A stretch of 64,000 nucleotides of DNA. It comes from Candidatus Poribacteria bacterium. Lineage in GTDB: Bacteria > Poribacteria > WGA-4E > WGA-3G. A model generated the notes under the pieces. It searched no databases and was not told where the DNA came from. It saw only the letters and a program-made list of their open reading frames with translations. Below, one piece after another: positions 3,965-58,991 of this stretch. Both the position numbers and the translations under genes were made by a program. The number at the start of each line of letters is the position of its first letter. Position 1 is the stretch's first letter. The stretch lies in the NCBI GenBank assembly GCA_965207855.1, contig OZ242310.1, forward strand, positions 1,656,686 through 1,720,685, in the 5' to 3' direction.

Positions 3965-3996
3965 ATTGTGGGAGGGGTTTGGAACCCCGAATGTCC

Positions 3997-18120: not shown

Positions 18121-18205
18121 TGCCGGGATGCTGGAATTGGTAGACAGGCTAGGTTCAGGGTCTAGTGTGCATTACGCGCGTAAGGGTTCGAGCCCCTTTC
18201 CCGGC
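18121..18205 (+). tRNA. tRNA-Leu (anticodon CAG)
   Basis: Acceptor GCCGGGA/TCCCGGC, long variable arm, anticodon loop TTCAGGG, T-loop GGTTCGAGCC. No encoded CCA. Confidence 0.9.
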
Positions 18206-18306
18206 ATTTTCCAACAAACTGAGAAACTGAATTGTAACCCACTGCAACCTTCCTTACACTTTAGTTTGCATCGGCCTTTCTTTGCCAAGAGGGTATATAG
18301 AGAACA

Positions 18307-21274: not shown

Positions 21275-21384
21275 TTAAACACGAAAAAAGATATACAGTT
21301 TAACTTACAAACGTCTATTACACCAGCAAATGTAGTTTCCAATTTTGCTTGTGTTGTTTGTAAGTGTAAGCAGTAGATAAAGCT

Positions 21385-21460
<76 letters not shown>

Positions 21461-21489
21461 TTCAAAACAGAATAAGATTTCTAACACAA

Positions 21490-21563
<74 letters not shown>

Positions 21564-21595
21564 CTTTTCATACTGCTGAAGGCAAATCTAAGTGT

Positions 21596-21668
21596 GGTGG
21601 ATGTAGCTCAGGGGTAGAGCACTTGACTGTGGATCAAGTGGTCGTGGGTTCAAATCCCATCATCCACC
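21596..21668 (+). tRNA. tRNA-His (anticodon GTG)
   Basis: Extra 5' G(-1), acceptor GTGGATG/CATCCAC, anticodon stem CTTGA/TCAAG with loop CTGTGGA. Confidence 0.9.
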
Positions 21669-21728
21669 CTCATTCATATCTGGGGTCCTGCCTATCACTG
21701 GGAACGGGGGACCGGTTGTATACGGATG

Positions 21729-21767
21729 TCAGGAGGCGTTGAGGGTTCGGTGCCTTCACGGCGCATC
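21729..21767 (+). pseudogene. duplicated 3' half of tRNA-Lys (fragment)
   Basis: TCAGGAGGCGTTGAGGGTTCGGTGCCTTCACGGCGCATC aligns with the 3' half of the intact tRNA-Lys (TCAGGCGGTTGAAGGTTCGATTCCTTCACGGCGCATC) about 90 nt downstream. Confidence 0.6.
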
Positions 21768-21858
21768 AGTAATACAATAGACTCGGAGACCACGCATGTC
21801 ACGAGTTAAAAGCGACGCTTGTAGAAACCGTTTCCGGTAGCAAAGGTACTGAGCAGGC

Positions 21859-21931
21859 GCGCCGTTAGCTCAATTGGCAGAGCATCTGACTCTTAATCAG
21901 GCGGTTGAAGGTTCGATTCCTTCACGGCGCA
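21859..21931 (+). tRNA. tRNA-Lys (anticodon CTT)
   Basis: Acceptor GCGCCGT/ACGGCGC, anticodon loop CTCTTAA, T-loop GGTTCGATTCC. Confidence 0.9.
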
Positions 21932-21993
21932 TCGCTTGTAATATTCGACGAGTGTCAGGCAACGGTAAATTTTGCCGCGTGTGGGCAAAATTT

Positions 21994-22078
21994 GGGCGGG
22001 TGCTGGAATTGGTAGACAGGATAGACTTAGGATCTATTGGGGTTACGCCTCGTGAGGGTTCAAGTCCCTCCTCGCCCA
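21994..22078 (+). tRNA. tRNA-Leu (anticodon TAG)
   Basis: D-arm identical to the other tRNA-Leu. Anticodon stem ATAGA/TCTAT with loop CTTAGGA, long variable arm, T-loop GGTTCAAGTCC. Confidence 0.9.
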
Positions 22079-22132
22079 TAGTCGCAGATTTTTAGTCAGT
22101 GATTTAAAGTATCCGGGCTTTCAGAGCTCGGC

Positions 22133-30211: not shown

Positions 30212-33200
30212 ATGAAAAAGATTTACATTTTTTTATTAATACCGCTTATACTCTATACTGTCTCGCCCTCAATTTCTGTAGCACAGACCCCTCTAACGTC
30301 GCCGCTGCAAGTGCTTTCGACCACATCAGATACGCTCACGGCGCGTTTTGCGTTACCTGAACTGCAAGTAAAGACAAGTGCTCATTCTGCTGAAGGCAGT
30401 TCTGCAGAACCGGTAACCGATATCCGTTTTGCCGGTGCTAATTGGACGCTTGACGTAGGTAGACCTCGGTTACCTGTCTATGTACAGTGCATCGGGATTC
30501 CTCTCGCTGGAACGCCGATTGTTGCCGTGATTCGGGCGCGTCCGGAAGTAAGAAGTGTTGAAAATGTTCGTCTCACACCCGATGATCCGATTTTCCCAAC
30601 TTCAACCCCATCGCGCCCTGATTCACAAGGGTTTTATCCGTCGAGATTGGTGGAAGTTGTCCCGAGCGGTCTTGTTCGCAATCAGCGTGTCGCGAGCCTA
30701 CAAATCAATCCGGTGCAATACAATTCGGCGACAAAGCAATTAAAGATCTATACATCTATAACATTCCGGATTGAATTTCCGGGTGCTGTCCGGCTTGCCA
30801 AGAATGGCGCGATAGAATCTACCATGCTTCCCTCCTTCCACTCTTCTGCTTTTGAAAGTCTCTTTCGAGGAACATTACGGAACTATGACCAAGCAAAATC
30901 ATGGCGGAACCAGCGACGGATGTCCTATAGTGGTGCGCCCGGGGCACCAGAATTAACGGCTTCTACCACCTACCGCTTTAAAATTCCAGTTGTTAGAACA
31001 GACCTTTATCGTATCACTTACAATAATATCAGGGCTGCCGCTGGTATTGAACCAGAGGATATTGATCTGAATACCCTTCGATTAGAAAGTAGCGGACAGA
31101 AACAGGGCGTTTACATTTTTGATGATAACGAAAACGATATACTTGACGCAGGCGAACAGATTGTTTTTTATGGACGGGCATTGGCGGACAACAAATTTAC
31201 TGACGAAAACGTTTATTGGCTCCATTTTGCTTTGCGAGGAGAGCCTGTTACTGGAGCTCTTGAACCGTCCCGTGTGGCAACGCGGGACGCAACACCACTC
31301 ACGCCAAACTTAGTAACACCGACTGCCTTTTTAACGCGCGTCCGTTTTGAAGAGAACGTACATCACGATGTTTTAGCCGGAACCAATATTAAGTCCGAAC
31401 TTGCTGATCACTATTTCTGGACTCCCTTCCGTGGTGGAAATATCAACACAAGTCGAAAGGATTTTCCTATAGAACTGCCTGCCGCAGTCCCGCGCCTTGA
31501 GATTGATCGCAATGCGACGCTACGTATTAAATTCCAAGGGGCTTCCCGCAGAGGTGCAGCACTCCACCAAGCGCGAATTGCTTTCAATGGACTTCAACTT
31601 GGTAGAGTCGAGGAGTGGAAACGTCAAGCTGCGCCTATTGCAACCCGCAGCATTCCGCAATTACGCATCCACCATAACCAAGTCAATTATATGCGTATTG
31701 AGGCACTTGATACCAACAGAACGCCTGCAGGATCCTACGATTTCTATCTCGATTGGTATGAACTTGATTATTGGCGAAACTTTCGAGCGGATGCCAACCG
31801 TCTTGAATTTAATACAAATACCGAACCTCGTAATCGCGGCAAGGTCCAATACCGGATTGAGAACATTTTTAATGAAACAATTGATGTGTATCAACTTGAT
31901 GAAAAAGGTATTGCGAGTAAACTCATCAACGGTGAAATTTCGCGAAGAGGCGCGGCTTATCAAATACTCTTTGAAGATACCGTCAATCTGCATACGCGCT
32001 ATTTTGTCATAGGTCGTTCTGCCTATCGGAGTATCAACGCACTCATACCGACACCACCAACCTTGCTGCGCAATCCATCCAATCAAGCCGATTATATTGT
32101 CATAACGCATCCAACCTTTACGGAGAGCATCCAGCCGCTCGTTGAATTCCGGCGGTCGCAAGGCTTAACAACGATGGTGGTTGATATCGGCGACATCTAC
32201 GATGAATTTAGTGATGGGCTCTTTAATCCACTGGCTATCCAGAAATTCCTTCGATATACCTATGATAATTGGCAACAACCTGTCCCGACCTATGTTGTTC
32301 TTGTGGGGGATGCCCATTACGATTACAAGCGTGCTACTGTTGAACTCTACCGTCGAGATCCGTCATTCCGGGGGACCTATAATCTCTATCCAATCTTCGT
32401 ACCAACATTCCACGGTTGGGCCCCTGAGAGCGGTGAAACTGCCATGGACCAGCGTTTCGTCAATGTGAGTGGCGAAGATCCGCTACCCGATATGCTTATA
32501 GGGCGACTCTCCGTTCAAACCCCTGAAGACCTCGCGACTATGGTTGAGAAAATCATCAACTATGAAAAGAATTTGAGAACCGGATTATGGCAAGGCACAT
32601 TAATTCAGGTGGCTGATGACAACACAGACAACCCTGGTGATGGACTCTTTGAGGTGTCGCGGGATGAACTGATAGCAGATGTTATACCCGTGGGCTACGA
32701 CACACGCCAAATCTATCTCCGAAAAATTAGAAGCCCAGAGCGCACACGCCTCCAGATACGATCTGCCATCAATCAGGGCGCGCTCGCAATTGAGTATACG
32801 GGACACGGTGGCATCCAGACGTGGGCGGATGAATCTATTTTTCGACTTGAAGATGTCGTTGGATTAAGGAATCGTTACCTTCCTTTCGTTATAACGACAA
32901 CCTGTCTCAATGGACAGTTCGATAAACCCCAACAAGTTGGGAATTTCTGCCTCAGCGAGCAATTCCTATTGGGTAAATATGGTGCTATTGCTACACTCTC
33001 GGCGACGCGGTTAACTTATGGCACAGCAAACGCTGAGTTTGACATCGATCTCTTTGAGTCCTTATTCGGGGTCGGGCGCGCTGGGGATCTGGATACCGGG
33101 TTTCAGCCCTCGCGAACTGCGCCGACGGTGGGGCATATTGTTACCAATGCTAAAATTAGTTTCCTCACCCGCATTCGGAACACGCAATGGATTCCCGGCA

Positions 33201-36200
33201 CGGAACAATATACGCTCTTTGGCGACCCGGCATCTCGTCTTGCACTCCCTGAACTCGATGTAAAGGTCGAGTTAGAACGCATCGCACTCAACGATGGGCA
33301 CCAGATAGTTATTGAGGCGAACGAAGTAGGGACGATTGAAAGAACGGGTATTGGTGGAACGGGCGGTACAACTTTCACACGCGCCTCCGATTTTAGCACA
33401 GAATCACTTTCTGCTTTTGCCGTTTTCGCAAATAATTTTGACGATGACCCTGGAAATGAGTTAACACGGCGGATGGGTGGCAGAGTGTGGCAAGGTGAGT
33501 ATGGAACGATTCGTATTGATGTGCCTAACAACGCCTTGCCGGGTGGTGGTGTGGCACGGATTTTCGCTTTTGATGACACGCGCGCCGCTGTTGGAGGTGC
33601 GCGCTTCTGGGTTGATACACCCGTTGTACACGACATCCAAGAAACACTCGATATTAAAGTTACCGACACTCTTAATATTAGTGTCCTCGTTGTTGACGAC
33701 CGCGGACCAGCGGGTATACGGAGCATTGAGGTCTTATGGGATGATACTGCGACCTTTAAAGATGAAACAATCCCTATGGTTAAAGCACCTGTTCCCCTCG
33801 GTGATGTGCCATTGGGTGGGCAGTGGTATGAACTCCAAACACCTATTCCACTGCCACAAGGTGGACGACAGATTCGCTACCGGATCCTTGTTACGGATAG
33901 GAGTGGAAACGATATTGCCATTCCATCAAAGATTGAGCGCAACGTCGTTAAGGTGCCTGAAGGTCCCAATATCGCAATCGGTACGGACGAAACGAACAAA
34001 GCACCGATTCGATATGAGTTTGCTGAAGAGAAAAATGCCTACCAACTCGTTGCGGAAATTGTTAACATCGGTGGACGACCTGTACGCGCAGATATTGAAG
34101 TCGTGTTTGCTGAAGGAAATCCGGATTCAGAAGGTGATAGCATTATTGATGAAGATGCTAATATTTTGGGTCGTCTAATTATCAAACCCACTGATTGGAC
34201 AGATGGCATCCATGTTTTGCAGCATGTGACGGCAACCTTAGATCTTGACAAGCCCCTCCTGACAGGTGTACATAAAATCTATGTTCTTGCAGATCCAGAT
34301 GATCCGACAATTGACGATGAAATCCGCGGCAGCGTTCAAGAATCGCGCCAGTTTGATAACAAACAACACGTCTCGTTTATCGTCAATGAGTTTAGCTATA
34401 AACTTCAAGAAGCGTTGACGGCCTTTAGTTTGGATCGGGTGTTTGACATCCATTTCCCCGCGAATGCCCTCGACATTGACGAACAAAGTAAGGCGGGGAT
34501 CCCACTCTCTGTTTCTTCACAGGCACCCGTTGAGCCAGTCCAACCTGATCTCCAATTCGCACCTATTCCTCGCGTCGCTGCACTCCGCCGCGGTCTCATC
34601 CGGCAGGGAGCAGAAGTCGCGCAATACTATGAACCGAGTTTCCGAGTAGGTGTAACAGAACTTGCTAAACCTGCTGAGGTTAAACTCCGTTTCGATGTGA
34701 GTGCTTTGGAGGATATTGTGCGGGAGGAGACGGCTCTCCGAGATAACACGCCTGCATTTAAAGCCGCATTAGCCGAAACTGCAAATCAGTTGGCGATCTA
34801 TGCGTGGCAAGCGGATTTTTCGGCGTGGCGACGCTTACCCTCCGAAATCAGTTACGCCTCTGAAGGGGAATTTTTGCTTGAAGACTATGTCACACCAACA
34901 CAGATGGAGAACGCAAATGAGCAGAAATTAGAGGATTCCGCGATCACCGTTAACCCAAATCTTACGCCTGCTGGGACGTGGGTACTGGTCTTTCTGGATT
35001 CTTATGAATACGAGGTGTTTCTCCAACGGAAGGGAGAAACGACTGTCCAGAAACTCGATCAATCTGGTCAATTGGACAATCCGTTCAGAGAGGAAGGCTT
35101 CGGTTTAGAATTGCGGATTCCGAGGCAAGAGAGCACACCACTTGGGGTTAATTACACCTTTGAATTTGCTGATGTTCTCGCTTTTAAAACTGACTATAAT
35201 CCGAGAGGCGATGTCGTTCTCACACGCACGTGGAATGCCAACACCGGGAACGGCAATGCGACAGTGGACGGCAGACGCGGACCCAGAGGCGAATTCATAA
35301 TTGGGGATTGGTTCATCTTTTTTACCGAACCTGAGCGCTACGAACTTCGTAATGCCTCCGGCGAACCGTCCTATTATCCGAATGGCGTCAAAATTCGAGG
35401 TAAAGTGAACGAACCGATTTATCTTGGGCACCTCGGATTGGAACTCCTTGTGACTGCCAGCTCCGAAAGCTTCGCGTTTGGCGATAAGATTAAGTTTAGC
35501 AGTGCTCAGGTCGGAACGATTACAGCGGAAGTCAGCGAACTTACACAGTTTAGTCTCATGCGCAGCACTGATACTGAACCGCCTGCTTTCAGTCTCTGGT
35601 TAGATGGTATCCAGCCGCAAACCGGTAGTGTGATTCCCCCACGCCCTACCATTTCTATTGTACTGGAAGATACTAACGGTATTGATATGGATTTCTTTGC
35701 TTTTGAGGGAAAAAAGGACGATGCTCCGTTTACACCTATCACCGACTATGAGCTCCGAATACAGGGAAGGACGCAAACTGTGCCGATTGATTATCAACCC
35801 ATTCTCTTCCCAGGTGAGCATACTTTTAACATCAGTGCACAAGATTTCAATGGAAATGCCATCGGTGGTGACGAAAAAGTCATCAGTTACAGATTTTTTG
35901 TAACCGAGGCTCCTGATCTGACACCGCCTACTATTGATATCCAAATCACTGCACTCGGTACAGGTTCAACGCGTGAGCCAATTGACGAGCCTTTGATAGA
36001 TGGTGCTGTACTTACAGAGCAACCCCGCTTTAAAATTACACTCACCGATGATAGTGCGCTTGACGAGACCTCTTTTAATCTCGGTTTTGGAAGTCTGTAT
36101 GAAACACTTAACCCGTTAGATGCAAGGGATTATACTGAAACCTTCGATCCTGATGCACCAGCGGATGCCGCTATCACTTATGCCCCGGATCTCGCTAATG

Positions 36201-36580
36201 GTGAGTATCAGTTCCATATTACCGCTGCAGATACCAGTGAGAACACAGCAGAATTTGTTACAACCTTTGTTTTGGATGAGGAAGTCACGCTCAGTGAGGT
36301 TTTCAACGTCCCAAACCCGATGGTCGATGGAAAGACCTTTTTTACATATCACCTCGCACAAGCACCCGACACCGTTACAATTAAGATTTACAGCGTCAAC
36401 GGCAGACTCCTCCGAACGCTTACCGATGCGAGTGCCAGTCGTGGTGCCAACGAAACCCATTGGGATGGTAGGGATGAAACAGGGGTGCGGTGTGCCAATG
36501 GTGTATACTTCTACCGTGTTATTGCTAACACGGAAAATGGAAAAGTCGAGCAGATCGGGAAGTTAGCCATTTTGCGTTAG
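30212..36580 (+). CDS. giant secreted peptidase C25 (gingipain-like) family protein with Por/FlgD-Ig-type C-terminal domain
   Basis: Signal peptide MKKIYIFLLIPLILYTVSPSISVAQ. C25 core from ADYIVITHPTF (about nt 32087), with YTGHGG (His865) and TTTCLNGQF (Cys898). The last ~90 aa (VFNVPNPMVDGKT...VTIKIYSVNGRLL...WDGRDETG...GVYFYRV) match the Por secretion tail / FlgD Ig-like pattern. Confidence 0.8.
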   Translation: MKKIYIFLLIPLILYTVSPSISVAQTPLTSPLQVLSTTSDTLTARFALPELQVKTSAHSAEGSSAEPVTDIRFAGANWTLDVGRPRLPVYVQCIGIPLAGTPIVAVIRARPEVRSVENVRLTPDDPIFPTSTPSRPDSQGFYPSRLVEVVPSGLVRNQRVASLQINPVQYNSATKQLKIYTSITFRIEFPGAVRLAKNGAIESTMLPSFHSSAFESLFRGTLRNYDQAKSWRNQRRMSYSGAPGAPELTASTTYRFKIPVVRTDLYRITYNNIRAAAGIEPEDIDLNTLRLESSGQKQGVYIFDDNENDILDAGEQIVFYGRALADNKFTDENVYWLHFALRGEPVTGALEPSRVATRDATPLTPNLVTPTAFLTRVRFEENVHHDVLAGTNIKSELADHYFWTPFRGGNINTSRKDFPIELPAAVPRLEIDRNATLRIKFQGASRRGAALHQARIAFNGLQLGRVEEWKRQAAPIATRSIPQLRIHHNQVNYMRIEALDTNRTPAGSYDFYLDWYELDYWRNFRADANRLEFNTNTEPRNRGKVQYRIENIFNETIDVYQLDEKGIASKLINGEISRRGAAYQILFEDTVNLHTRYFVIGRSAYRSINALIPTPPTLLRNPSNQADYIVITHPTFTESIQPLVEFRRSQGLTTMVVDIGDIYDEFSDGLFNPLAIQKFLRYTYDNWQQPVPTYVVLVGDAHYDYKRATVELYRRDPSFRGTYNLYPIFVPTFHGWAPESGETAMDQRFVNVSGEDPLPDMLIGRLSVQTPEDLATMVEKIINYEKNLRTGLWQGTLIQVADDNTDNPGDGLFEVSRDELIADVIPVGYDTRQIYLRKIRSPERTRLQIRSAINQGALAIEYTGHGGIQTWADESIFRLEDVVGLRNRYLPFVITTTCLNGQFDKPQQVGNFCLSEQFLLGKYGAIATLSATRLTYGTANAEFDIDLFESLFGVGRAGDLDTGFQPSRTAPTVGHIVTNAKISFLTRIRNTQWIPGTEQYTLFGDPASRLALPELDVKVELERIALNDGHQIVIEANEVGTIERTGIGGTGGTTFTRASDFSTESLSAFAVFANNFDDDPGNELTRRMGGRVWQGEYGTIRIDVPNNALPGGGVARIFAFDDTRAAVGGARFWVDTPVVHDIQETLDIKVTDTLNISVLVVDDRGPAGIRSIEVLWDDTATFKDETIPMVKAPVPLGDVPLGGQWYELQTPIPLPQGGRQIRYRILVTDRSGNDIAIPSKIERNVVKVPEGPNIAIGTDETNKAPIRYEFAEEKNAYQLVAEIVNIGGRPVRADIEVVFAEGNPDSEGDSIIDEDANILGRLIIKPTDWTDGIHVLQHVTATLDLDKPLLTGVHKIYVLADPDDPTIDDEIRGSVQESRQFDNKQHVSFIVNEFSYKLQEALTAFSLDRVFDIHFPANALDIDEQSKAGIPLSVSSQAPVEPVQPDLQFAPIPRVAALRRGLIRQGAEVAQYYEPSFRVGVTELAKPAEVKLRFDVSALEDIVREETALRDNTPAFKAALAETANQLAIYAWQADFSAWRRLPSEISYASEGEFLLEDYVTPTQMENANEQKLEDSAITVNPNLTPAGTWVLVFLDSYEYEVFLQRKGETTVQKLDQSGQLDNPFREEGFGLELRIPRQESTPLGVNYTFEFADVLAFKTDYNPRGDVVLTRTWNANTGNGNATVDGRRGPRGEFIIGDWFIFFTEPERYELRNASGEPSYYPNGVKIRGKVNEPIYLGHLGLELLVTASSESFAFGDKIKFSSAQVGTITAEVSELTQFSLMRSTDTEPPAFSLWLDGIQPQTGSVIPPRPTISIVLEDTNGIDMDFFAFEGKKDDAPFTPITDYELRIQGRTQTVPIDYQPILFPGEHTFNISAQDFNGNAIGGDEKVISYRFFVTEAPDLTPPTIDIQITALGTGSTREPIDEPLIDGAVLTEQPRFKITLTDDSALDETSFNLGFGSLYETLNPLDARDYTETFDPDAPADAAITYAPDLANGEYQFHITAADTSENTAEFVTTFVLDEEVTLSEVFNVPNPMVDGKTFFTYHLAQAPDTVTIKIYSVNGRLLRTLTDASASRGANETHWDGRDETGVRCANGVYFYRVIANTENGKVEQIGKLAILR

Positions 36581-48086: not shown

Positions 48087-49775
48087 TCAATACAGCACAT
48101 GCACCCGATTCTTCCCGCGCACCGTTTCATCTGGCATCGCAATGGGAACCTCAACGATAACGATGAGAGCACCATCTGTGCTAATCGCGAGCGTATCATA
48201 AGGGAGCTGCCCTTCCGTGCGGTAGGTGTACAGGTATTTTGATAAGCCACTGCCTTCGGCTGTCAGGTCGAACATTGACACGCCGTGAAGGCTCTCATTC
48301 GGATCCTGCGTACGCTTGGAAACAGATAACAGGGCGTAGCGATCCGTCGCGTCAATGCGTAAACCTTGGGGCATATTCTCAAGTTGCCACTGCCAGATTT
48401 TTTCCCCCGTCCACGAATACGCGAACAGGGTCATCGCATTCGGGTGTGCGCCCGAAGGGCGTTGCGCGCCTTTTCGGAGATGGTAGGGAATATATGTATC
48501 ACCCGTAACAAAAAGTGCCGCTGCGTCCGTCGCATCAATTGTGCCAGAGGTGGCTACGATAGGAATACCGCTTACCTCTAATGGAGTTGTCAGATTTTCC
48601 TGCCATATCGGTTCTGGGTTATTGACATCAAAGATGAATGCGCGTCCATCATCTGTTGTTACGTTGATAAACTTACCATCGGGGGACACACTCACCCCAC
48701 GCCAAAACGTGACCTGTGAGAAATATGGGGTCAACGGTTCAATATCAGCGCGCCACTTTTCGGTCCCGTCTTTCGCGTTGAGGACGACGAGTTTGCCGTT
48801 ACCTTTTGTCGTGTTCCCCTGTAAATTATGTCCGGCATCTGTGACGAGCGCGAGTGTTTCTCCATCAGCACTTGCGTCAAACCAGCGTATTATCCTCGAT
48901 ACCGCGCTATCGTGGGGCCATTTCCAAATAACGTTTCCCGTTTTATTATCGAACCTATAGAGCTGAGACTTCTTACGGGGTGTATCGTTTTCTGTCCACG
49001 AATGCACACCAGCAACCAGAAGGTCGCCGTTCGCCAGCGTTTGCATACAAGACTGACCGGGGTAGCTGACCCATGCATAGACACTTCCAGGATCACTCGG
49101 CGTGGAAGTCTCTATGTCGTCGGCTGTACGGTATTTCCAGCGAAGGGTCGGCGTATCGGTTGTTAGATTGTAGCAATAGATAAATCCGTCTGATGCCTGT
49201 TCTCCGACATAGAGCAGCGCGTTGTCAGGACTAAACGCCACCCGTCGCACGTAGCCTTCCGAGATGCGGGTCTTCCAAAGCGTTTCACCCGTGATGGGTT
49301 GAAGAATCGTGAGGTGTCCACTGTCTGTCGCAACTGCCAACTTTTCTGTGTTGGACGCGTTTCCGGTCCCCAAGGCGACGGCTGTCGGTTTTGCGGGTTG
49401 ACGGAGGTCTTCCATCAATGACAAAAGCCCATCTAATTCAACGGTCCGAATGAGATAAGGTTCAGGCTTGAGTGGTGAAGTTGCTGTTGTCTCATTCTCG
49501 CTCAAGCGGAATTGGTAATTTTCGTTCGGTTGCCATGTGAATTGGAGAAAAACGCGATTCACGTCAAGCCTCTGAATTGTAGGTGCCTCGGCTAATGCGT
49601 GTGTTGTGCCGTTGGACATCGTTGCGACATTAATCTCACCTTCAATGCCGTTTTTCTGTTGTGTTTCAAGTACTACGCCTGTCCGTACCCAAGTGATGCC
49701 CATATCGGCTGTCACAATACCAATGGGTGAAACTATCAACAGACAGAATAGCGTAAAAAATTGAATTCGTTTCAT
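48087..49775 (-). CDS. secreted PQQ-like / WD40-like beta-propeller repeat protein
   Basis: Start moved to MKRIQFFTLFCLLIVSPIGIVTA (signal peptide). Repeated G-x-x-x-W-K/Q propeller blades (GETLWKTR, GNVIWKWP, GTEKWRAD, PEPIWQEN, GEKIWQWQ). Confidence 0.65.
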   Translation of the reverse strand: MKRIQFFTLFCLLIVSPIGIVTADMGITWVRTGVVLETQQKNGIEGEINVATMSNGTTHALAEAPTIQRLDVNRVFLQFTWQPNENYQFRLSENETTATSPLKPEPYLIRTVELDGLLSLMEDLRQPAKPTAVALGTGNASNTEKLAVATDSGHLTILQPITGETLWKTRISEGYVRRVAFSPDNALLYVGEQASDGFIYCYNLTTDTPTLRWKYRTADDIETSTPSDPGSVYAWVSYPGQSCMQTLANGDLLVAGVHSWTENDTPRKKSQLYRFDNKTGNVIWKWPHDSAVSRIIRWFDASADGETLALVTDAGHNLQGNTTKGNGKLVVLNAKDGTEKWRADIEPLTPYFSQVTFWRGVSVSPDGKFINVTTDDGRAFIFDVNNPEPIWQENLTTPLEVSGIPIVATSGTIDATDAAALFVTGDTYIPYHLRKGAQRPSGAHPNAMTLFAYSWTGEKIWQWQLENMPQGLRIDATDRYALLSVSKRTQDPNESLHGVSMFDLTAEGSGLSKYLYTYRTEGQLPYDTLAISTDGALIVIVEVPIAMPDETVRGKNRVHVLY

Positions 49776-49807
49776 TGTTGTGTTCCTTTCTATGAGGGAG
49801 TGATAGT

Positions 49808-51811
49808 TTAGTCCGCTACACGCCAGAGGCCTCGTCCTAATCTCGCACCGAGAAGTACGCCGATAAACGTATAGACGAATCCTTCTATCAGAATTCGGAG
49901 AATGATATACCAATCGGCGTAAAAAAGCCGATAGAGCAGTATAGAGAGTTGGAGATCAACATAGACGGCAATCGCATCACAGAGACCTAACACAACTGCC
50001 CATGCGAACAGACTACGACTTCGCACAAATAGAAAACCCGTTTCCAAGAGAAGAACGCTTGTGCCGGTGTAGACGATCGCCATCGGTGTAAAAAGTCCGA
50101 ACGTCACACCACCGAGCAGTAAGCGGACTGCAGAGACAAGCAAGATAACACCACTCCCGTTATTATGTGGTTTCAGGGCATCGCTCGCCGAATTTTCAGG
50201 GTCTCCACTAATATAAATTAACAATGCCGTCAGCAAAGCGTAGTAGAGCGTCTCATTTATCAAGCCAGTCACCAGTACGGAAATAGGTCCGAGGAGTGCG
50301 CGGATTAAGTTAAGAAACAACGTGGACGGGACCATTACCGCCACAAAAACAGTCGTGCCAAAGAGTGCGATAACAATGAGTTGTTTCGTGGTGAAACCCG
50401 CGAACAGTTGTTTGTGCAACTTTAAGACAACTGCCAATCCGATCGTACTGCTAATGATTGCCAATAGACTAACAAGCAATGCTTGTTGGTTTGGAACAAT
50501 CAGGTGAAGTGGACGCTCTTCACGAAAGATTGTTGCATCGCTTCCCCAGACCTTTACCGAAATATCGCGCGTGTATCCTCCAGGAATCGCCTGTTCTATC
50601 TTACCCGCTTTTAGATACGTCGGATGAAAGTAGATAGGTAAGGGAATCTCAGTAACTTCGCCTCCCGGCAGACTCGCAAAGGCAACGCTCCGGTTCGTTC
50701 CGCCGTTTGCTGTCTCTGGTGGTGAAAGAAAAGGAACAACTTCACCAGTCTTTATATCTCTATTGATTGATGACACAGCCACATGGATAGTCTCTTCGCC
50801 CTGATTGTGGAGGCGGATGGTCTGAAAGGTTGTCGGCTCAAATGGATTCGTCTGTGAGGGGTCAAGCCAACTGAACAGTGGACGCGGGTAGTAGATGGTA
50901 TCCGCCCGCTGCTTGGTGTCTACTGCGCCTGTTGCGTCTGTAGGCATCTCGATCGATGCTATTGAGAGGTATTTAGTAATCTCTGAAACGGTTGCCGTTC
51001 GCAACTGTACCGTTGTCTGTTGTTCCCATGTCTGTCCTGTATCTGTTGTGAAGCGGACAACTCCCGATATTTCTTGCTTATCTGAGTCAGCTGCTCTGGA
51101 GGTTTTCAGCACTAGTTCACGGTACCAGACCTCCGATGCGATCCCAAATCTACCTGTGGTCGAGAGACAGATTCCTGCGTTGGTCGTTTCAGTCTGCCAA
51201 CCTGTTGGCAAACGCACAACAGTTAACGTTGATGGGAGACAGAGTTCGACCTCAAAAGTTGTCGGGGTTTTTCCATTTCTAACGAGGACTGTGGCTGTCA
51301 TTTCGCTGTCCTGTAGGACGAGCGCGACTTGATCGTTGTTTGTTGTATCTCCTGCTTCCAGTTGCGTCCCAACACCATAAGGGATGGCGATTTCTAAACT
51401 CCCTTGTGTGTATGTCCGCGGCGCAGTTACCGTTTGAACGTCCACATCGCCTGTTGTTAAGGTCGCTTCAAACCTATAGGTTTCTCCTTCACGCCATTCA
51501 AAATAGAGTGGCTCTGTCTGACGGGGTGGCGTAGGAAAATTGAGCTGCGCAACCATCGCACCGTCGGCGTTAAAGGCGTTCAGGAGTTGAACGGGTGCTT
51601 CCGCGCGCAATTGCACCTTTGCCCCCAATGAAAAGAATGTCACCTTCCATGTGAAAGGCTCTTCTTTGGGAGCTGAGGCACAACTCAGCAAAAAAACGAG
51701 GAGAGGCAAACAACAAGCCGCCTTGGATAAGAGGTCTGAACTGTGATTTATGAGATTGGTAGATGGTTCCTGATTAGGTACTCTTTTAATCATAGCAAAT
51801 CTTAAAATCAT
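49808..51811 (-). CDS. lipoprotein-like protein with large extracytoplasmic domain and C-terminal polytopic membrane domain (hypothetical)
   Basis: Lipobox-like LLVFLLSC, about 400 aa of beta-rich soluble region, then about 6-7 hydrophobic helices. No family recognised. Confidence 0.55.
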   Translation of the reverse strand: MILRFAMIKRVPNQEPSTNLINHSSDLLSKAACCLPLLVFLLSCASAPKEEPFTWKVTFFSLGAKVQLRAEAPVQLLNAFNADGAMVAQLNFPTPPRQTEPLYFEWREGETYRFEATLTTGDVDVQTVTAPRTYTQGSLEIAIPYGVGTQLEAGDTTNNDQVALVLQDSEMTATVLVRNGKTPTTFEVELCLPSTLTVVRLPTGWQTETTNAGICLSTTGRFGIASEVWYRELVLKTSRAADSDKQEISGVVRFTTDTGQTWEQQTTVQLRTATVSEITKYLSIASIEMPTDATGAVDTKQRADTIYYPRPLFSWLDPSQTNPFEPTTFQTIRLHNQGEETIHVAVSSINRDIKTGEVVPFLSPPETANGGTNRSVAFASLPGGEVTEIPLPIYFHPTYLKAGKIEQAIPGGYTRDISVKVWGSDATIFREERPLHLIVPNQQALLVSLLAIISSTIGLAVVLKLHKQLFAGFTTKQLIVIALFGTTVFVAVMVPSTLFLNLIRALLGPISVLVTGLINETLYYALLTALLIYISGDPENSASDALKPHNNGSGVILLVSAVRLLLGGVTFGLFTPMAIVYTGTSVLLLETGFLFVRSRSLFAWAVVLGLCDAIAVYVDLQLSILLYRLFYADWYIILRILIEGFVYTFIGVLLGARLGRGLWRVAD

Positions 51812-51851: not shown

Positions 51852-53192
51852 TTAAAGTCCCTGTCCTATCAACACTAAATCAAGGACATTAACAACTTGG
51901 TCTCCGTTGACATCGGCGACTATGCCCGGGCCCTCGTCCCCCAAGAATCGGCTGGCAATGATTAGGTCTTCCTCGTTGACGAACCCATCGTTGTTGATGT
52001 CTTCACGGCGTGGGACAATCTGTGCGAATCCCACATTGTTAGCACCGGATCCAACGCGGTAGGATCGCAGGAGAGACGCATCCATGACATCCATAACGCG
52101 AACGAAATCCTGTCCGCCGCCCGACCAATCGGGTTGGGTGATATAGAGACTTCCATCTGGTGCGAAGGTCAGTCCCCCACTGATAGAGGCATCTGCATCG
52201 TTGCTGAAGTTGGCGATCACGTCATCTTCATCCCGAATCCACGCTTGTGCCGCGACATCGTAGATAAGCAAACCTGGATTTTGCCAACTCCCTTGGAGAA
52301 ATAACTGCTTTTGTGAATTGAGAGCGACGGAGCCAGGCGTGAAGCCAAGTTTGACCGTTTCGATAATCTCATCGGTGGTCGCGTCAATCAGAACGAGATG
52401 CCCCGAAATGTCATTGTAATTACCCGTTGTTTTGAGAACGATAGTGGAGCCGCCATCGTTGACGATTGTGCTTGCGTTTGTCGGTACCGGTATGGATTTC
52501 AATATGATATCAGTCTCCGTGTCAATCACTGTGACACTGCTATCGTAATAGGTCGTTTTCCGTGCGACCGGGTCCCACTCCCATGCCGGATTCGAGACAT
52601 AAGCTTTGCCGTTGAGGAGCGTGATGCCGGTCGGTTTGTTGAAGGAACCCGTGAGGACCTTTGTCACGTTGCGATTTGGAATATCAACGACATGCACCTC
52701 ATGTGCTGCTGCACAGGTGACGTATAGCTTCTGATTATTGATCAAAGCGATCTGCTGCGGCGTTGTACCCGCTTGGATTGGAATTTCACCAACAAACTCT
52801 CGATTTTCCAAGTTTATAATATAGATGTTGTCACCGGAACTTGTTCCGCCAGTGATAGGTAAGTTAAAAGTTGTTATATAGGCAAGATGCCCGTGAATAG
52901 AGAGACCTATTGCCCGCCGCCGCAATATTGGATCAAAGCCGAAGCGAAGTATCTCATTATCAACAGCCCGTCTTTCATTCGGTTCCATTAAGTCGATAAG
53001 TGAGAGTGAAGCGGTGATGCCTAAGTCGGGATGTGTCAGGGCGTTTATGACAACTGCCAGTTCCTGAACTTCTGTTTGTCCGAAAGCTGAACTAAGGAGA
53101 AGTGTGAAGAGTATCGCTCCTATAAGTAAGAGCGATTGTAAATTGTGAGAATGGCACGAAAAATGCCGCCGAGTCAAAAAAACTTTGTTCAT
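51852..53192 (-). CDS. secreted YVTN-type beta-propeller protein with C-terminal dockerin
   Basis: Start moved to MNKVFL, with GGAGG 7 nt upstream. YVTN-like blades (LYVTCAAAHEVHVVD, AYVSNP, SVTVIDTETD). The C-terminal duplicated Ca-loop DINNDGFVNEED / DVNGDQVVNVLD indicates a type I dockerin. Confidence 0.65.
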   Translation of the reverse strand: MNKVFLTRRHFSCHSHNLQSLLLIGAILFTLLLSSAFGQTEVQELAVVINALTHPDLGITASLSLIDLMEPNERRAVDNEILRFGFDPILRRRAIGLSIHGHLAYITTFNLPITGGTSSGDNIYIINLENREFVGEIPIQAGTTPQQIALINNQKLYVTCAAAHEVHVVDIPNRNVTKVLTGSFNKPTGITLLNGKAYVSNPAWEWDPVARKTTYYDSSVTVIDTETDIILKSIPVPTNASTIVNDGGSTIVLKTTGNYNDISGHLVLIDATTDEIIETVKLGFTPGSVALNSQKQLFLQGSWQNPGLLIYDVAAQAWIRDEDDVIANFSNDADASISGGLTFAPDGSLYITQPDWSGGGQDFVRVMDVMDASLLRSYRVGSGANNVGFAQIVPRREDINNDGFVNEEDLIIASRFLGDEGPGIVADVNGDQVVNVLDLVLIGQGL

Positions 53193-53658
53193 TAGAACCT
53201 CCGTAATGAAACAAAAAACCCCTGCCTTCATAGCCTTTTTGTAGCAAGCGTTGACTTGCAAACGGCTCGAAAAGCAGAGGAGGCGACATTCTGTGCGAAT
53301 CTGATCCTGTCGTTTCGTGTGAGAATTCTATACCTTTATGGGTATTTCTATGTTTCTGACAGGATATTGCTGCGCGCTGTTCCACTGCTTTCCCGCGAAA
53401 GCAGATATGTGAAACACGATTCAGGCAGGTCTCCTGACTTCCGATCTTGCGTCCACTGAACCTTCCCATCAATGCATTGACAGTGGTTTCTACAGCGGAT
53501 ATTTACGATCGTTCACAGTGGCGGGGCCGTGGCGGATTCTCACCGCGCTTCCCTATTCTCCGGCTCTCTCCGGCACCTAAATCGTCAGCTTATTTAATTG
53601 TAATATCTATATTGTATCACGTTGTGCTATTTTTTGCAAATGTTTTTTGGTTAAAAAT

Positions 53659-53687
53659 TTGACAATGTAATGTAGATGTGTTATTAT
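53659..53687 (+). promoter_or_regulatory. promoter of the hisI-trpEG leader
   Basis: TTGACA (53659-53664), a 17-nt spacer, then TATTAT (53682-53687). Confidence 0.55.
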
Positions 53688-53761
53688 TAATATTAGTGTT
53701 TGGAATTTGGATAAAAATGAGCGTTTAGAAGTTATCAATCCGTCTGTGAAAAGTGATAAAC

Positions 53762-53863
53762 ATGACACTTGTACGTTCACACTCCAACTTGCATAGCGTA
53801 TCCAACCATTGGCATTGGTGGCGTTCCAACTGCTTGCTGGGGAGTGTGCGCTTAGACAGATAA
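53762..53863 (+). CDS. candidate His/Trp-rich leader peptide (33 codons)
   Basis: Hand translation gives MTLVRSHSNLHSVSNHWHWWRSNCLLGSVRLDR*. It has three Trp and four His codons. Location is between the promoter and the terminator upstream of hisI-trpEG. The RBS is weak, and an in-frame GTG lies at 53753. Confidence 0.55.
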   Translation: MTLVRSHSNLHSVSNHWHWWRSNCLLGSVRLDR

Positions 53864-53911
53864 ATACAATAAAAATAGAAAATCGCCTTTTTTCATTTTT
53901 AAATCTTGTTG

Positions 53912-53957
53912 AAGCCTTATGCATACCAATCCCGGAAGCGTAAGGTTTTTTATTTTT
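53912..53957 (+). terminator. intrinsic terminator / attenuator hairpin before hisI
   Basis: CCTTATGC (53915-53922) pairs with GCGTAAGG (53938-53945), including one G-U, followed by TTTTTTATTTTT. The hisI RBS AAGGAGG follows immediately. Confidence 0.6.
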
Positions 53958-53973
53958 AAGGAGGAGAATCCGA

Positions 53974-54354
53974 ATGAAAATTCTATCGGAACTTAAGTAT
54001 GACAGGGATGGCTTAGTTGCTGCAGTCATTCAAGATGACGCGAACAACGAAATTTTAATGGTAGGTTATATGAACGCGGAAGCAATAGAAGAGACGCTAA
54101 CAACTGGGCGCGTCTGCTTCTGGAGCCGTTCCCGCCAGAAACTCTGGATAAAGGGGGAGACTTCAGGGCATACACAGACGGTTAAGTCTGTCGCGATTGA
54201 TTGCGACGGTGATGCCTTGCTCATAAAAGTTGATCAGAAGGTAGCAGCGTGTCATGTTGGCTATCGTTCCTGTTTCTTTCGAGAAGTTTCCCCCGACGGA
54301 GAGTCAACACATATCGTAGGTGAAAAGATTTTCGATGCAGATGCCGTTTATTAG
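53974..54354 (+). CDS. hisI: phosphoribosyl-AMP cyclohydrolase
   Basis: VIQDDANNEILMVGYMN, WSRSRQKLWIKGETSGH, DCDGDALL and CH.GYRSCFF motifs. Monofunctional, 126 aa. Confidence 0.92.
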   Translation: MKILSELKYDRDGLVAAVIQDDANNEILMVGYMNAEAIEETLTTGRVCFWSRSRQKLWIKGETSGHTQTVKSVAIDCDGDALLIKVDQKVAACHVGYRSCFFREVSPDGESTHIVGEKIFDADAVY

Positions 54355-54478: not shown

Positions 54479-55981
54479 ATGTATTATCCTACGTTGGAAG
54501 ACTTTCGCGAGGCAGCGAAAGCAGGAAACACAGTACCCGTATACCGATCTATTTTAGCGGATATGGAGACGCCGGTATCTGCCTTTTATAAGTTGATGCC
54601 AGATAATTATGCGTTTCTGTTAGAGAGTGTTGAAGGCGGTGAGAATGTTGCGCGCTATTCATTTCTGGGAAGTCAGCCATCAGTGCTTTTCCGGAGCAAA
54701 GGACATCAGGTTACTATTGAGGACTTGACGACAGGTGAAACTGTATCACAAGAATATGAAGACCCCTTAGGGGCACTTGAGGAGATGATGCGGAATTATG
54801 AACCTGTCCATATCGAGGGCTTACCGCAATTCCACGGCGGGGCGGTCGGTTATATGAGTTACGACATGGTGCGTTTCGTAGAGGAGTTGCCTGATAGCAC
54901 TGAAGATGATCTGCAGATTCCGGATTGCTTTTTCATGATTGCCGAGACGATTCTGATATTTGATCATGTGAACCATCAGATTCGGGTGGTAGTGAACGCA
55001 TGTATTGACGGAGATGTGGACACGGCTTATGCGAATGCAGTTGCGAAAATTGATGTCTTGGTAAAAAAACTCACGGCTGTTCCAGAAATACGCCTGGACG
55101 CGAACAAAGATGATCCATCAGAGCCGCAAGAGGATGTCTCATCTAAGCCGCAGTCGAATTTCACGAAGTCTGCTTATGAGGATATGGTGCGACATGCCAA
55201 AGAGTACATAGCAGCAGGGGACATCATCCAGGCTGTATGTTCGCAGCGGCTGAATTGTCCAGTATCCGTAGACCCATTTGAGATTTATCGAGCGTTGAGA
55301 GTGGTCAACCCCTCGCCATATATGTACTATCTGAAATTTGATAGCTTTAACATCGTAGGTGCATCCCCAGAGATGATGGTCCGTGTAGAAGACGGCATCG
55401 TCCAGACGGTTCCAATCGCTGGCACACGTCCGCGTGGCGCGACACCAGAAGAAGATAAAGCGTTAGAACAGGAACTCCTCACGGATCCCAAAGAACGTGC
55501 GGAGCACGTCATGCTCGTGGATTTAGGACGAAACGACCTTGGACGTGTATGCGAGTATCATAGCGTTGAGGTGACCGACCTTATGATCGTCGAACGTTTT
55601 TCACATGTGATGCACATCGTTTCACGCGTCGTTGGCCGCCTGCGCGAGAATATGACGGCTTTTGATGTCCTCCGTTCGTGTCTACCCGCCGGTACGCTCT
55701 CTGGTGCCCCCAAGGTACGGGCGATGGAAATCATCGACGAACTTGAATCGACGCGACGCGCCACATACGGCGGCGCAGTCGGTTACTTCAGTTTCTCTGG
55801 CAGTGCTGACACAGCGATTACGATCCGAACTGCACTTATTAAAGATGGGATCGCTTACGTGCAAGCCGGGGGTGGGATCGTCGCGGATTCGGTGCCTGAA
55901 ACCGAGTATTATGAAACCCTAAATAAGGCGTGGGCAATGTTCACGGCTATTGAGTTGGCGGAGCAAGGGCTTTTGTTGTGA
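54479..55981 (+). CDS. trpE: anthranilate synthase component I
   Basis: FLLESVEGGENVARYSFLG (Trp-feedback LLES motif), GAPK, and GGAVGY...IRT chorismate-binding core. 500 aa. Confidence 0.92.
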   Translation: MYYPTLEDFREAAKAGNTVPVYRSILADMETPVSAFYKLMPDNYAFLLESVEGGENVARYSFLGSQPSVLFRSKGHQVTIEDLTTGETVSQEYEDPLGALEEMMRNYEPVHIEGLPQFHGGAVGYMSYDMVRFVEELPDSTEDDLQIPDCFFMIAETILIFDHVNHQIRVVVNACIDGDVDTAYANAVAKIDVLVKKLTAVPEIRLDANKDDPSEPQEDVSSKPQSNFTKSAYEDMVRHAKEYIAAGDIIQAVCSQRLNCPVSVDPFEIYRALRVVNPSPYMYYLKFDSFNIVGASPEMMVRVEDGIVQTVPIAGTRPRGATPEEDKALEQELLTDPKERAEHVMLVDLGRNDLGRVCEYHSVEVTDLMIVERFSHVMHIVSRVVGRLRENMTAFDVLRSCLPAGTLSGAPKVRAMEIIDELESTRRATYGGAVGYFSFSGSADTAITIRTALIKDGIAYVQAGGGIVADSVPETEYYETLNKAWAMFTAIELAEQGLLL

Positions 55982-56017: not shown

Positions 56018-56581
56018 ATGGTTTTAATGATTGATAACTACGACTCCTTTACCTATAATCTCGTTCAGTATCTCGGCGAACTCGGTGCTGAACTGGAAAT
56101 TCATCGGAGTCGAAAGATAGGACTGGAGGCGTTAGACGCACTGCAGCCAGAACGAATTGTTATTTCACCGGGGCCTTGCACGCCGAAAGAGGCAGGCATA
56201 TCCAACGATGTCATAAAACACTTTGCTGGAAAGGTGCCGATTTTAGGGGTTTGTCTCGGACACCAATGCATCGGGGACGTGTTCGGTGGTGAGGTGGTGC
56301 GTGCGGATCGTTTGATGCACGGCAAAACGTCTATGATACTGCATAACGGTACTGAACTCTTTGAAGGGTTGGACAACCCGTTTGAAGCGACGCGCTACCA
56401 TTCGCTTATCGTCCGAAAAGAGACGCTACCGGATTGCTTTGAGATTACAGCGTGGACCGACCAAGACGAGATTATGGGACTTCGGCATAAAACTTTACCT
56501 ATTTGGGGTGTGCAGTTTCATCCGGAGTCGATTTTAACAGCTGCTGGAAAGAGTTTGTTACAGAACTTTTTGGTACTATAA
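56018..56581 (+). CDS. trpG: anthranilate synthase component II (glutamine amidotransferase)
   Basis: GVCLGHQ catalytic Cys and FHPES. 187 aa. Confidence 0.92.
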
Positions 56582-56596
56582 CACAGAGGTTTAATA

Positions 56597-57358
56597 ATGG
56601 CAAAACAGACGAACGAGACGACACCGGTTTTGGTGTCTTGGTCTTCTGGTAAAGATTCCGCGTGGGCACTTCATACGCTACGACAACAGCCGGAACGCTA
56701 TGACGTGCGCGGTATCTTTACTACTGTTACAAAGACATTTGACCGGGTGTCTATTCACTCTACACCGGCATGGGTGCTGAAACAGCAGTCTGAAAAACTT
56801 GGGGTGCCGTTGTACGAGATACCGATTCCCTATCCTTGTTCTAACGCGATCTACGAAGAGGCGATGCGGAAATTTCTTGCTGAGATGGAAGCGTTACCTG
56901 AACATTTGGGGGCATCGCATTTAGCATTTGGGGATCTGTTCCTTGAAGACATCCGTGAATATCGCGAGGATAAGCTCAGTGGAACGGGTTTCACACCGAT
57001 TTTTCCGGTGTGGGGTGAAGACACGACGGAGCTTGCCCAGAAGATGATTGGTTCTGGCTTGCGCGCCATTGTTACAGCACTTAATCCTACCAAAGTTCCG
57101 CCTGACTTCGCGGGACGATGGTTTGATGCTGACCTCCTCGCAGATATGCCTGATGGCGTAGATCCGCTCGGCGAAAACGGTGAATTCCATACCTGTGTTG
57201 TTGATGGACCGATGTTTAGTTCGCCTATTGCAGCGAAACCGGGTAGGGTCGTCCAGAGAGATATTGTTTCTACTAAAGACAGCGACGACAAAATTCACAC
57301 AAGAAGCAACACGTCACCGACCTATATCTATGCTGATGTCGTACCGTTGGATGCGTAA
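56597..57358 (+). CDS. PP-loop ATP pyrophosphatase, Dph6/MJ0570-related (DUF71)
   Basis: VSWSSGKDSAWAL PP-loop variant and ENGEFHTCVVDGPMF motif. Confidence 0.65.
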   Translation: MAKQTNETTPVLVSWSSGKDSAWALHTLRQQPERYDVRGIFTTVTKTFDRVSIHSTPAWVLKQQSEKLGVPLYEIPIPYPCSNAIYEEAMRKFLAEMEALPEHLGASHLAFGDLFLEDIREYREDKLSGTGFTPIFPVWGEDTTELAQKMIGSGLRAIVTALNPTKVPPDFAGRWFDADLLADMPDGVDPLGENGEFHTCVVDGPMFSSPIAAKPGRVVQRDIVSTKDSDDKIHTRSNTSPTYIYADVVPLDA

Positions 57359-57373: not shown

Positions 57374-58021
57374 ATGAAAAAAAAGAAAGCGGTTGTATTA
57401 TGGACGGGTGGAAAAGATTCTGCCCTCGCCCTTCAAGTCTCCTTAAATCTTTACGATATAAGGAGGCTTGTCTGTTTTGTCCCAGCAGACAATCGGCAGT
57501 TCTACGCACATCCGACGCAACTCATGGAACTGCAGGCACGAAAAATCGGACTCCCAATTGAATTCATGTCGATCTCTGAACCTTATGCGTCGAGTTATCG
57601 TCAACAAATTGAGAAGATTAAAGACAGCGGAATTGAGGTGTTAATTACGGGAGATATTTCTACTGTAGGTGGGATGCCGAACTGGATTGACGGTGTTGCG
57701 GCTGGCGTGGCAGAGGTCTATAAGCCGCTATGGGAGTTGGACCGAGAGACGATATTGGATGAGTTAGTCTCTAAAAAATTTAAAGTCGTCTGCTCTCTGG
57801 CTTACAAAAAATATTTCCAATCTACGATCGCCGGAAGATATTTAGATGTGGAACTCATTTCAGAACTGAAGCAGTTACCGATTGACCCCTGCGGAGAACA
57901 AGGCGAATACCACACATGGGTGTTAGATGCGCCATTTTTTAAGGAATCTATCCGGTTGGAAGGCACACAGGTCGTTGAGGCGGTCGAATATTGCTATCTC
58001 ACTTACGAAAAGGCGATATGA
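57374..58021 (+). CDS. PP-loop ATP pyrophosphatase, Dph6/MJ0570-related (DUF71)
   Basis: VLWTGGKDSALAL PP-loop and EQGEYHTWVLDAPFF motif. Paralog of the preceding gene. Confidence 0.65.
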   Translation: MKKKKAVVLWTGGKDSALALQVSLNLYDIRRLVCFVPADNRQFYAHPTQLMELQARKIGLPIEFMSISEPYASSYRQQIEKIKDSGIEVLITGDISTVGGMPNWIDGVAAGVAEVYKPLWELDRETILDELVSKKFKVVCSLAYKKYFQSTIAGRYLDVELISELKQLPIDPCGEQGEYHTWVLDAPFFKESIRLEGTQVVEAVEYCYLTYEKAI

Positions 58022-58904: not shown

Positions 58905-58991
58905 TAAAATTGGTAAGAGGCTGGCTTTAGGGTATCAGAAGTTTCTTAACAATTGGAATACTGCAAGGACAACGTCCGCAGCAGCCCATAT

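Follow-up and report, generated by a model that had tools for sequence, protein, structure and literature searches.

What controls a bacterial gene set that opens with a histidine gene and continues with the genes for anthranilate synthase? The question is raised by a 64-kb stretch of a Candidatus Poribacteria genome (the window, meaning the whole stretch analysed), in which a leader unit lies directly 5' of hisI-trpE-trpG. We consider it likely that this leader is a trpL-type, ribosome-mediated transcription attenuator controlling hisI-trpE-trpG, probably together with two downstream ATP-pyrophosphatase-like genes. A preliminary description of the locus had proposed a candidate dual-amino-acid attenuator for His and Trp. 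Comparative evidence bears out the attenuator, with a promoter, a small open reading frame (ORF), regulatory codons, a helix between leader regions 1 and 2 (1:2) and a terminator before hisI-trpE-trpG, and the Trp part of the proposal stands; the dual part is not established, as only one His codon, His18, is near-invariant and two of its bases lie in a hairpin.

Elements of the leader

All elements of the leader and its operon lie on the plus strand. The unit begins with a sigma-70-type promoter (53659-53687) made up of TTGACA (53659-53664), a 17-nt spacer and TG-TATTAT (53682-53687), matching the consensus at 11 of 12 positions and carrying the extended -10 TG. It is followed by a 33-codon ORF, from ATG 53762 to TAA 53861-53863, that encodes MTLVRSHSNLHSVSNHWHWWRSNCLLGSVRLDR and contains the regulatory codons TGG CAT TGG TGG (Trp17-His18-Trp19-Trp20; 53810-53821). 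An intrinsic terminator (53911-53957) closes the leader. The hairpin that the preliminary description had recognized, CCTTATGC (53915-53922) with GCGTAAGG (53938-53945), is the core of a longer stem of 12 bp (53911-53922 with 53938-53949; -15.9 kcal/mol), which overlaps the start of the T-run TTTTTTATTTTT (53946-53957). The Shine-Dalgarno (SD) sequence of hisI, AAGGAGG at 53958, comes immediately after the T-run, and the hisI ATG is at 53974.

Family matches identify the downstream genes as hisI (phosphoribosyl-AMP cyclohydrolase; 53958-54354 including the SD; NF000768, 173.6 bits against a cutoff of 126), trpE (anthranilate synthase component I; 54479-55981; TIGR00564, 592.8 bits against a cutoff of 517.7) and trpG (glutamine amidotransferase component II; 56018-56581; TIGR00566, 273.8 bits). 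The promoter, the ORF, the Trp/His codon cluster before hisI and the identity of the three genes are as the preliminary description had given them.

Between ORF start and terminator, four regions can be assigned. Region 1, CACACTCC (53778-53785), overlaps Ser-His-Ser codons and is the 5' arm of a predicted 1:2 anti-antiterminator helix. Region 2, CTGGGGAGTGTGCGCTT (53837-53853), may pair with either region 1 or region 3; within it, GGAGTGTG (53841-53848) is complementary to region 1 at eight of eight positions. This pairing had been noticed before, with its 5' arm placed one base off, at 53779-53786. An apical hairpin from the RNAalifold consensus, TTGG (53815-53818) with CCAA (53826-53829), spans 53815-53829 inside the 1:2 structure and contains the last two Trp codons. 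Region 3 (53912-53935) consists of AAGC, GCATAC and TCCCGG, which form the base, top and loop of the 5' arm of the terminator; region 4 is the partner of region 3 in that stem (3:4). The leader thus appears to combine the parts of an attenuator, namely a small ORF, cognate Trp codons, a terminator, and an antiterminator with its region 1, in a fitting geometry.

How much of this could arise by chance? The promoter match alone is not significant in the window (3 sites against 2.7 expected), and the fold of the whole leader is no better than that of shuffled sequences (z = -0.33). The hairpin escaped a simple terminator scan, its loop exceeding 8 nt. In composition the leader ORF is 9% Trp (1.0% in the genes of the window) and 12% His (2.2% in those genes), with P ~5e-3 for each, and no other intergenic small ORF across the 64 kb has a Trp run. 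The decisive evidence that the leader is not a chance assembly is its conservation across about 80 species.

Conservation of the leader in Poribacteria

A HisI protein scan, restricted to one genome per species, gave 80 loci with HisI 77-94% identical to the query; 78 are labelled Candidatus or uncultured Poribacteria and two only 'uncultured bacterium'. The leader unit is present 5' of hisI in 78 of the 80 loci and in five more Poribacteria metagenome contigs; loci L064 and L071 are without it, and in L078 it is cut off at the contig end. In aligning the related hisI upstream regions, as the preliminary description had suggested, we found both the Trp/His run and the hairpin conserved. The peptide consensus is M-x3-R-S-H-S-x-L-H-S-x-S-N-H-W-H-W-W-(R/H)-S-N…, and none of the 83 leaders retains fewer than two Trp codons, with RHWW, WHRW, WYWR, WHWR and HHWHWWWH among the variants of the codon run. 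In 47 of 70 related leaders, a promoter matching at least 11 of 12 positions precedes the first Trp codon by 100-156 nt. The 12-mer TGGCAYTGGTGG occurs 76 times in 892 kb, once per Poribacteria locus, on the hisI strand and upstream of hisI; within the same 892 kb it was never found in non-Poribacteria loci.

The genes under the leader are equally constant. trpE follows hisI in 79 of the 80 loci and trpG follows trpE in 77, the order hisI-trpE-trpG being kept wherever the locus is long enough (L046, L064 and L071 end or show no match). The hisI-trpE gap is usually 35-330 nt, in a few cases up to 1.6 kb, and in no species does it hold a second leader or a Trp-rich small ORF. The gene upstream of the leader varies among species.

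This last observation bears on the possibility that there is no regulator here, the divergent promoter region holding just an insulator or a constitutive terminator and the small ORF being an accident. A cobalamin riboswitch (Rfam, 112.6 bits) does lie at 53407-53595 on the minus strand, and because it serves the divergent gene, the intergenic space is a divergent control region of which the leader unit forms the right half; the chance-level promoter match in the window would also fit. However, the unit stays with hisI while its upstream neighbour changes, the ORF and the alternative pairings are conserved, and a full terminator placed with its own conserved promoter before an essential biosynthetic operon would silence that operon. 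We regard the absence of any regulator as extremely improbable.

Several loci depart from the common form. In L071, about four tandem GC-rich palindromic repeats of ~100 nt each lie 5' of hisI (~3580-4000). L003 (~3750-3890) has an in-frame 39-nt insertion that breaks the codon run between TGGCA and TTGGTGG. L077 (1-190), from a contig cut at its 5' end, has a diverged leader, …S-H-H-W-H-W-W-W-H-R…, and a re-made terminator. A metagenome scan seeded with the L077 HisI and aimed at more divergent leaders returned six Poribacteria contigs, five with an ordinary W-H-W-W leader and one truncated inside hisI; the contigs from other taxa in that scan had no leader. In many species, including L001, L007-L009, L011-L013, L018, L027, L044 and L055, an extra conserved segment of 42 to ~220 nt, beginning GCAAAGTTCGCAGATTGAC…, lies between the T-run and the hisI SD. 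The longer terminator-hisI spacers contain no His- or Trp-rich small ORF that could serve as a separate His leader 3' of the terminator.

trpE also follows hisI in unrelated, mostly high-GC metagenome contigs (L137, L150, L152 and L154, as well as L120, L127 and L138), and hisI itself is 3' of hisF in L137, L150/L152 and L154. None of these unrelated hisI-trpE contigs has a leader ORF; because the adjacency occurs there leaderless, the linkage of hisI and trpE seems older or wider than the leader.

A preserved frame without a preserved peptide

The leaders were compared in an alignment of 71 sequences (A1), chosen with a pattern that includes the His18 codon. From -48 to +27 around the first Trp codon the leader frame is open in all 71, against seven and five of 71 for the other two frames. 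An ATG stands at -48 (or at -45, -51, -57 or -60) from the first Trp codon in 70 leaders, with GTG in the remaining one, and indels 5' of the Trp codons are of 3, 9 or 39 nt. The stop codon lies at +45 or +51 in most leaders, in or immediately past region 2. Two subtypes of leader are distinguished by 1 nt before region 2, so that they read it in different frames (…GSVR… as opposed to …EECAR-stop); both nevertheless end at or just after region 2, the RNA sequence of which is conserved. Since the subtypes read region 2 in different frames and variation among the 71 leaders has no 3-base periodicity, the peptide sequence itself does not seem to be under selection. What is kept is an open frame with its Trp codons, the place where it stops, and the sequence of the RNA; this is the expected signature of a leader peptide and not of a small protein.

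Very high nucleotide conservation without codon periodicity, a C-terminal peptide that differs between subtypes and a weak SD before the ORF are also what one might see if the leader were a translation-independent structured RNA sensor, such as a riboswitch or a tRNA- or protein-binding leader of the T-box or TRAP kind, with the ORF a by-product of conservation. Against this, the frame is open in 71 of 71 leaders as opposed to 5-7 of 71, the ATG is conserved, the stop is held at region 2 although the downstream frame differs, the 5' indels are multiples of three, and the invariant core consists of codons for an amino acid made by the downstream genes. No Rfam family reaches its threshold and no T-box is found: in a permissive Rfam scan of 53200-54100 the cobalamin riboswitch on the opposite strand is the sole match to pass, every other one has E of at least 0.7, and there is no His_leader, T-box or other riboswitch family. 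As for TRAP, inspection by eye, no tool scan having been made, shows no obvious (G/U)AG repeat run. A translation-independent sensor is, in our estimate, improbable.

Amino-acid conservation in the N-terminal half of the peptide exceeds what biosynthetic leaders usually show, which raises a different alternative, TnaC-type nascent-peptide arrest, in which the peptide R-S-H-S-x-L-H-S-x-S-N-H-W-H-W-W would stall the ribosome on free Trp and not on uncharged tRNA. This conservation, however, coincides with RNA helix 1 and neighbouring conserved nucleotides. Because the operon is biosynthetic, induction by free Trp would have the wrong sign, and a four-region architecture with its stop at region 2 fits the sensing of starvation. 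Arrest of this type therefore strikes us as very improbable, and the leader is better read as an attenuator that responds to the charging of tRNA.

Alternative RNA structures

The conserved blocks of A1 correspond to the parts that such an attenuator needs: TTCACACTCC is region 1, CATTGGCATTGGTGGCGTTCCAAT holds the regulatory codons within the small hairpin, GGGGAGTGTGCGC is region 2, and GCCTTATGCACAC…GGCATAAGG plus the T-run are regions 3 and 4. Applied to the full alignment, RNAalifold returned the apical hairpin and the terminator but none of the long-range helices. The latter were tested as named structures, with pairing partners slid by 1-3 columns as the control.

The apical hairpin (columns 97-100 with 108-111) is paired in almost all 71 leaders. 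In helix 1:2 (columns 51-58 with 126-133) 94.4% of cells are paired, compared with at most 48% after sliding, and one pair has changed on both sides. The terminator (3:4) is paired in 98.9% of cells, again against at most 48%, with no covariation within the 71-sequence set. For the antiterminator (2:3) the figures are 90.6% and at most 64%; the compensatory pair 125:315 is GC in 30 leaders, GU in 15 and AU in 13, and 15 cells have changed on both sides, a number that 6 of 500 shuffles reach. The mean energy of the region 2:3 duplex over the 71 leaders is -18.9 kcal/mol, and cognate partners bind better than permuted ones (0 of 5000 permutations as good).

The mutually exclusive structure that the preliminary description had recommended looking for is present in the window, where duplex folding pairs region 2 (53837-53853) with 53912-53935 through CTGGGG:TCCCGG, GTGTGC:GCATAC and GCTT:AAGC. 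This antiterminator is predicted to have -24.6 kcal/mol before region 4 is transcribed. The diverged leader of L077 retains the three-part antiterminator and the His/Trp codon run, and its terminator reads GCCGTAGGC/GTCTACGGC instead of GCCTTATGC/GCATAAGGC, which amounts to two compensatory double changes. The elements of the leader, their conservation, its preserved frame and its pairing potential are properties of the sequences themselves.

Proposed mechanism and points against it

Three ribosome states were modelled in all 71 leaders with minimum-energy folds. The terminator is present in 71 of 71 leaders when no ribosome is on the RNA, together with 1:2, and likewise in 71 of 71 when the A-site is on the stop codon; with the A-site on the last Trp codon, the antiterminator replaces the terminator in 26 of 71, including the leader of the window. 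Before region 4 is available, the structure that joins region 2 to the terminator loop averages -24.2 kcal/mol, compared with -16.4 kcal/mol for the terminator alone.

We infer that the leader ORF is translated, that ribosomes stall in it, and that read-through depends on starvation. Transcription would start at about 53694, and the leader ORF would be translated while RNA polymerase proceeds. With ample charged tRNA-Trp, the ribosome would reach the stop at 53861 and, because this codon is only 8 nt downstream of region 2, would cover that region; 3:4 could then pair, and the terminator would release the transcript before hisI. Without translation, region 1 would pair with region 2 and the terminator would form as well. 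When charged tRNA-Trp is scarce, the ribosome would be expected to stall on Trp17, Trp19 or Trp20, and since the Trp codons lie between regions 1 and 2 it would keep the two apart, blocking 1:2. Region 2, left free, could pair with 53912-53935 before region 4 is made, and the polymerase would read through into hisI-trpE-trpG.

Several observations weigh against this account. In 45 of the 71 stalled models the terminator stays in the minimum-energy fold at equilibrium, so that the switch must act kinetically. In the E. coli trp leader the switch is likewise kinetic, 3:4 being more stable than 2:3. The element is so highly conserved that double-sided changes are few: helix 1:2 has one such pair, the antiterminator three, of which only one is frequent, and the terminator has none within the 71-sequence set. 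In a single-sequence test, 8.7% of the mononucleotide shuffles of region 2 bind region 3 as well as the native sequence does, and relatedness is left uncorrected in the shuffle and permutation controls. The SD before the leader ATG is weak (GTGA/GAG-like), unlike the AAGGAGG of hisI. A further conserved block, TTGCATAG (53789-53796; A1 columns ~63-79), covering Leu-His-Ser codons, has no conserved partner. Finally, all the evidence is computational, and the organisms are uncultivated.

The block TTGCATAG resembles the 3' arm of the terminator, GCATAAGG, and on paper could pair with CCTTATGC. This pairing with the terminator 5' arm has no covariation.

Histidine as a possible second input

Does the attenuator also sense histidine? 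A true dual sensor would be one in which stalling at His18, and also at His7, His11 and His16, relieves termination, so that starvation for either His or Trp induces the hisI-first operon. Shortage of charged tRNA-His may be expected to act like shortage of charged tRNA-Trp, because His18 sits in the same stall site, and all four His codons are placed where a stalled ribosome would prevent 1:2. No run of His codons is present, however, and a single codon should give a weak response at most. A His input is favoured by the composition of the leader (12% His against 2.2% in window proteins) and by hisI, which heads the operon in every case where the leader is found.

Conservation of the individual codons points in both directions. 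Of 83 leaders, 81 have His18, and the other two are L050, with a Tyr codon, and L003, with its insertion; the invariance of His18 within the 71-sequence set is circular because the selection pattern contains this codon, whereas the count of 81 of 83 includes leaders picked otherwise. Two bases of His18, A and T, fall within the apical hairpin, and RNA structure alone can explain much of their conservation. Yet its first base, C, is unpaired in 60 of 71 leaders; the partner of its A changes in 17 of 71 and the A never does; and the structurally analogous codon before Trp17 varies freely (CAT in 54, GAT in seven, TAT in six, and others). In L077, with its diverged flanking RNA, the run still reads His-His-Trp-His-Trp-Trp-Trp-His and uses CAC instead of CAT. 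The other His codons speak less for sensing: the CAC of Ser-His-Ser belongs to the 1:2 stem, and in 10-25% of species Asn, Tyr, Asp or Arg codons take the place of His11 (L-H-S) and His16 (N-H-W). The position following Trp-Trp alternates among Arg, His, Gln and Cys. We therefore hold the dual sensor only tentatively; physiologically meaningful His sensing is a reasonable hypothesis and not a finding, to which we would give somewhat less than an even chance.

Relation to known attenuators

The closest parallel is the trpL leader of E. coli and other enterobacteria. Both have a small ORF in which neighbouring Trp codons precede codons of the Arg/Ser type (…W-W-R-S… here and …W-W-R-T-S in E. coli), four regions with 1:2, 2:3 and 3:4 pairings, a terminating ribosome that masks region 2, and a terminator before the first gene, and both control trpE and trpG. 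The Poribacteria leader differs in having 33 codons instead of 14, in carrying its Trp codons in the apical part of 1:2 and not inside arm 1, in the His codon that interrupts its Trp run, and in having hisI as the first gene. Against the Rfam model of the Trp leader (RF00513, Trp_leader) it scores 15.7 bits, with a gathering score of 41 and E = 3.6, which is chance level. It is not a member of RF00513; the similarity is one of mechanism, with no detectable homology.

In Sinorhizobium meliloti, attenuation by trpL (14 aa) acts only at the anthranilate synthase unit trpE(G), other trp genes being elsewhere, and the terminated leader RNA and the peptide have functions in trans (PMC6614838). The Poribacteria loci resemble this arrangement in that only trpE and trpG are beside the leader in the window and in related loci, and differ in that the S. 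meliloti unit has no hisI.

Multivalent leader-peptide attenuators are known from thr (Thr and Ile) and ilvGMEDA (Leu, Val and Ile). As in these, one Poribacteria leader contains codons for several amino acids and might sense several shortages. The amino acids sensed by thr and ilv share a pathway or branch, whereas the pathways to His and Trp are separate, even if each consumes PRPP; moreover, the second amino acid is represented here by single codons instead of runs, and any role for it is hypothetical. For histidine, hisL has seven His codons in a row. Paralogs of hisS and hisZ in Bacillus carry His-codon leader peptides (PMC2965389). Like those systems, the Poribacteria unit has His codons in a leader ORF 5' of a his-related gene, followed by a terminator, but its His codons are scattered and do not form runs. 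In the Firmicutes, trp genes are controlled by the T-box, an RNA that binds uncharged tRNA-Trp, or by TRAP, a Trp-binding protein, neither of which needs a small ORF; conditional termination before trpE and the physiological signal are the same.

According to a 2010 survey, Proteobacteria and Actinobacteria were at that time the only groups with known leader peptides; the survey itself added the Firmicutes hisS paralogs (PMC2965389). Our literature search found no report of such a leader-peptide attenuator for Poribacteria.

Neighbouring genes and other features of the window

Downstream of trpG are two tandem PF01902 genes (Diphthami_syn_2, N-type ATP-pyrophosphatase-like; 56597-57358 and 57374-58021, plus strand), separated by 15-nt gaps. 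The first is kept 3' of trpG in most species, and the two are probably the distal part of the hisI-trpE-trpG operon.

On the other side of the divergent region, the cobalamin riboswitch precedes a row of beta-propeller-like ORFs on the minus strand (51852-53261, 49808-51811 and 48087-49913), with family matches that are absent or weak. The first two adjoin hisI in about half of the Poribacteria species. Riboswitch and ORFs together look like a B12-controlled gene set.

Elsewhere in the window, a Cys-rich small ORF, MGCCGRCPCSIPIVKKLLIP, is found at 58927-58989 on the minus strand, 70 nt 5' of panB. It is treated as a probable chance ORF, since it is missing at this position in L001, L018 and L080. 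The window also contains a tRNA cluster (Pro-Arg-His-Lys-Leu; 21384-22079, plus strand), a separate tRNA-Leu (18121-18207, plus strand) and an unannotated ORF of 2122 aa (30212-36580, plus strand).

Implications

The attenuator proposed here would extend classical leader-peptide attenuation to Candidatus Poribacteria, an uncultivated phylum of sponge symbionts, and it annotates a stretch of ~300 nt that is highly conserved, had no annotation before and is missed by current RNA family libraries. Its distinctive feature, a His codon within the Trp run combined with hisI as the first gene, might make it a two-input sensor. If so, one attenuator would sense shortage of either His or Trp and would couple hisI to the first trp enzymes throughout a sponge-symbiont phylum; it would then be the first leader-peptide attenuator to integrate two unrelated biosynthetic pathways and a compact natural example of a two-input device. 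The Trp attenuator indicates that anthranilate synthase in these symbionts may be regulated according to how well their own tRNA-Trp is charged, a point relevant to the exchange of amino acids within the sponge holobiont.

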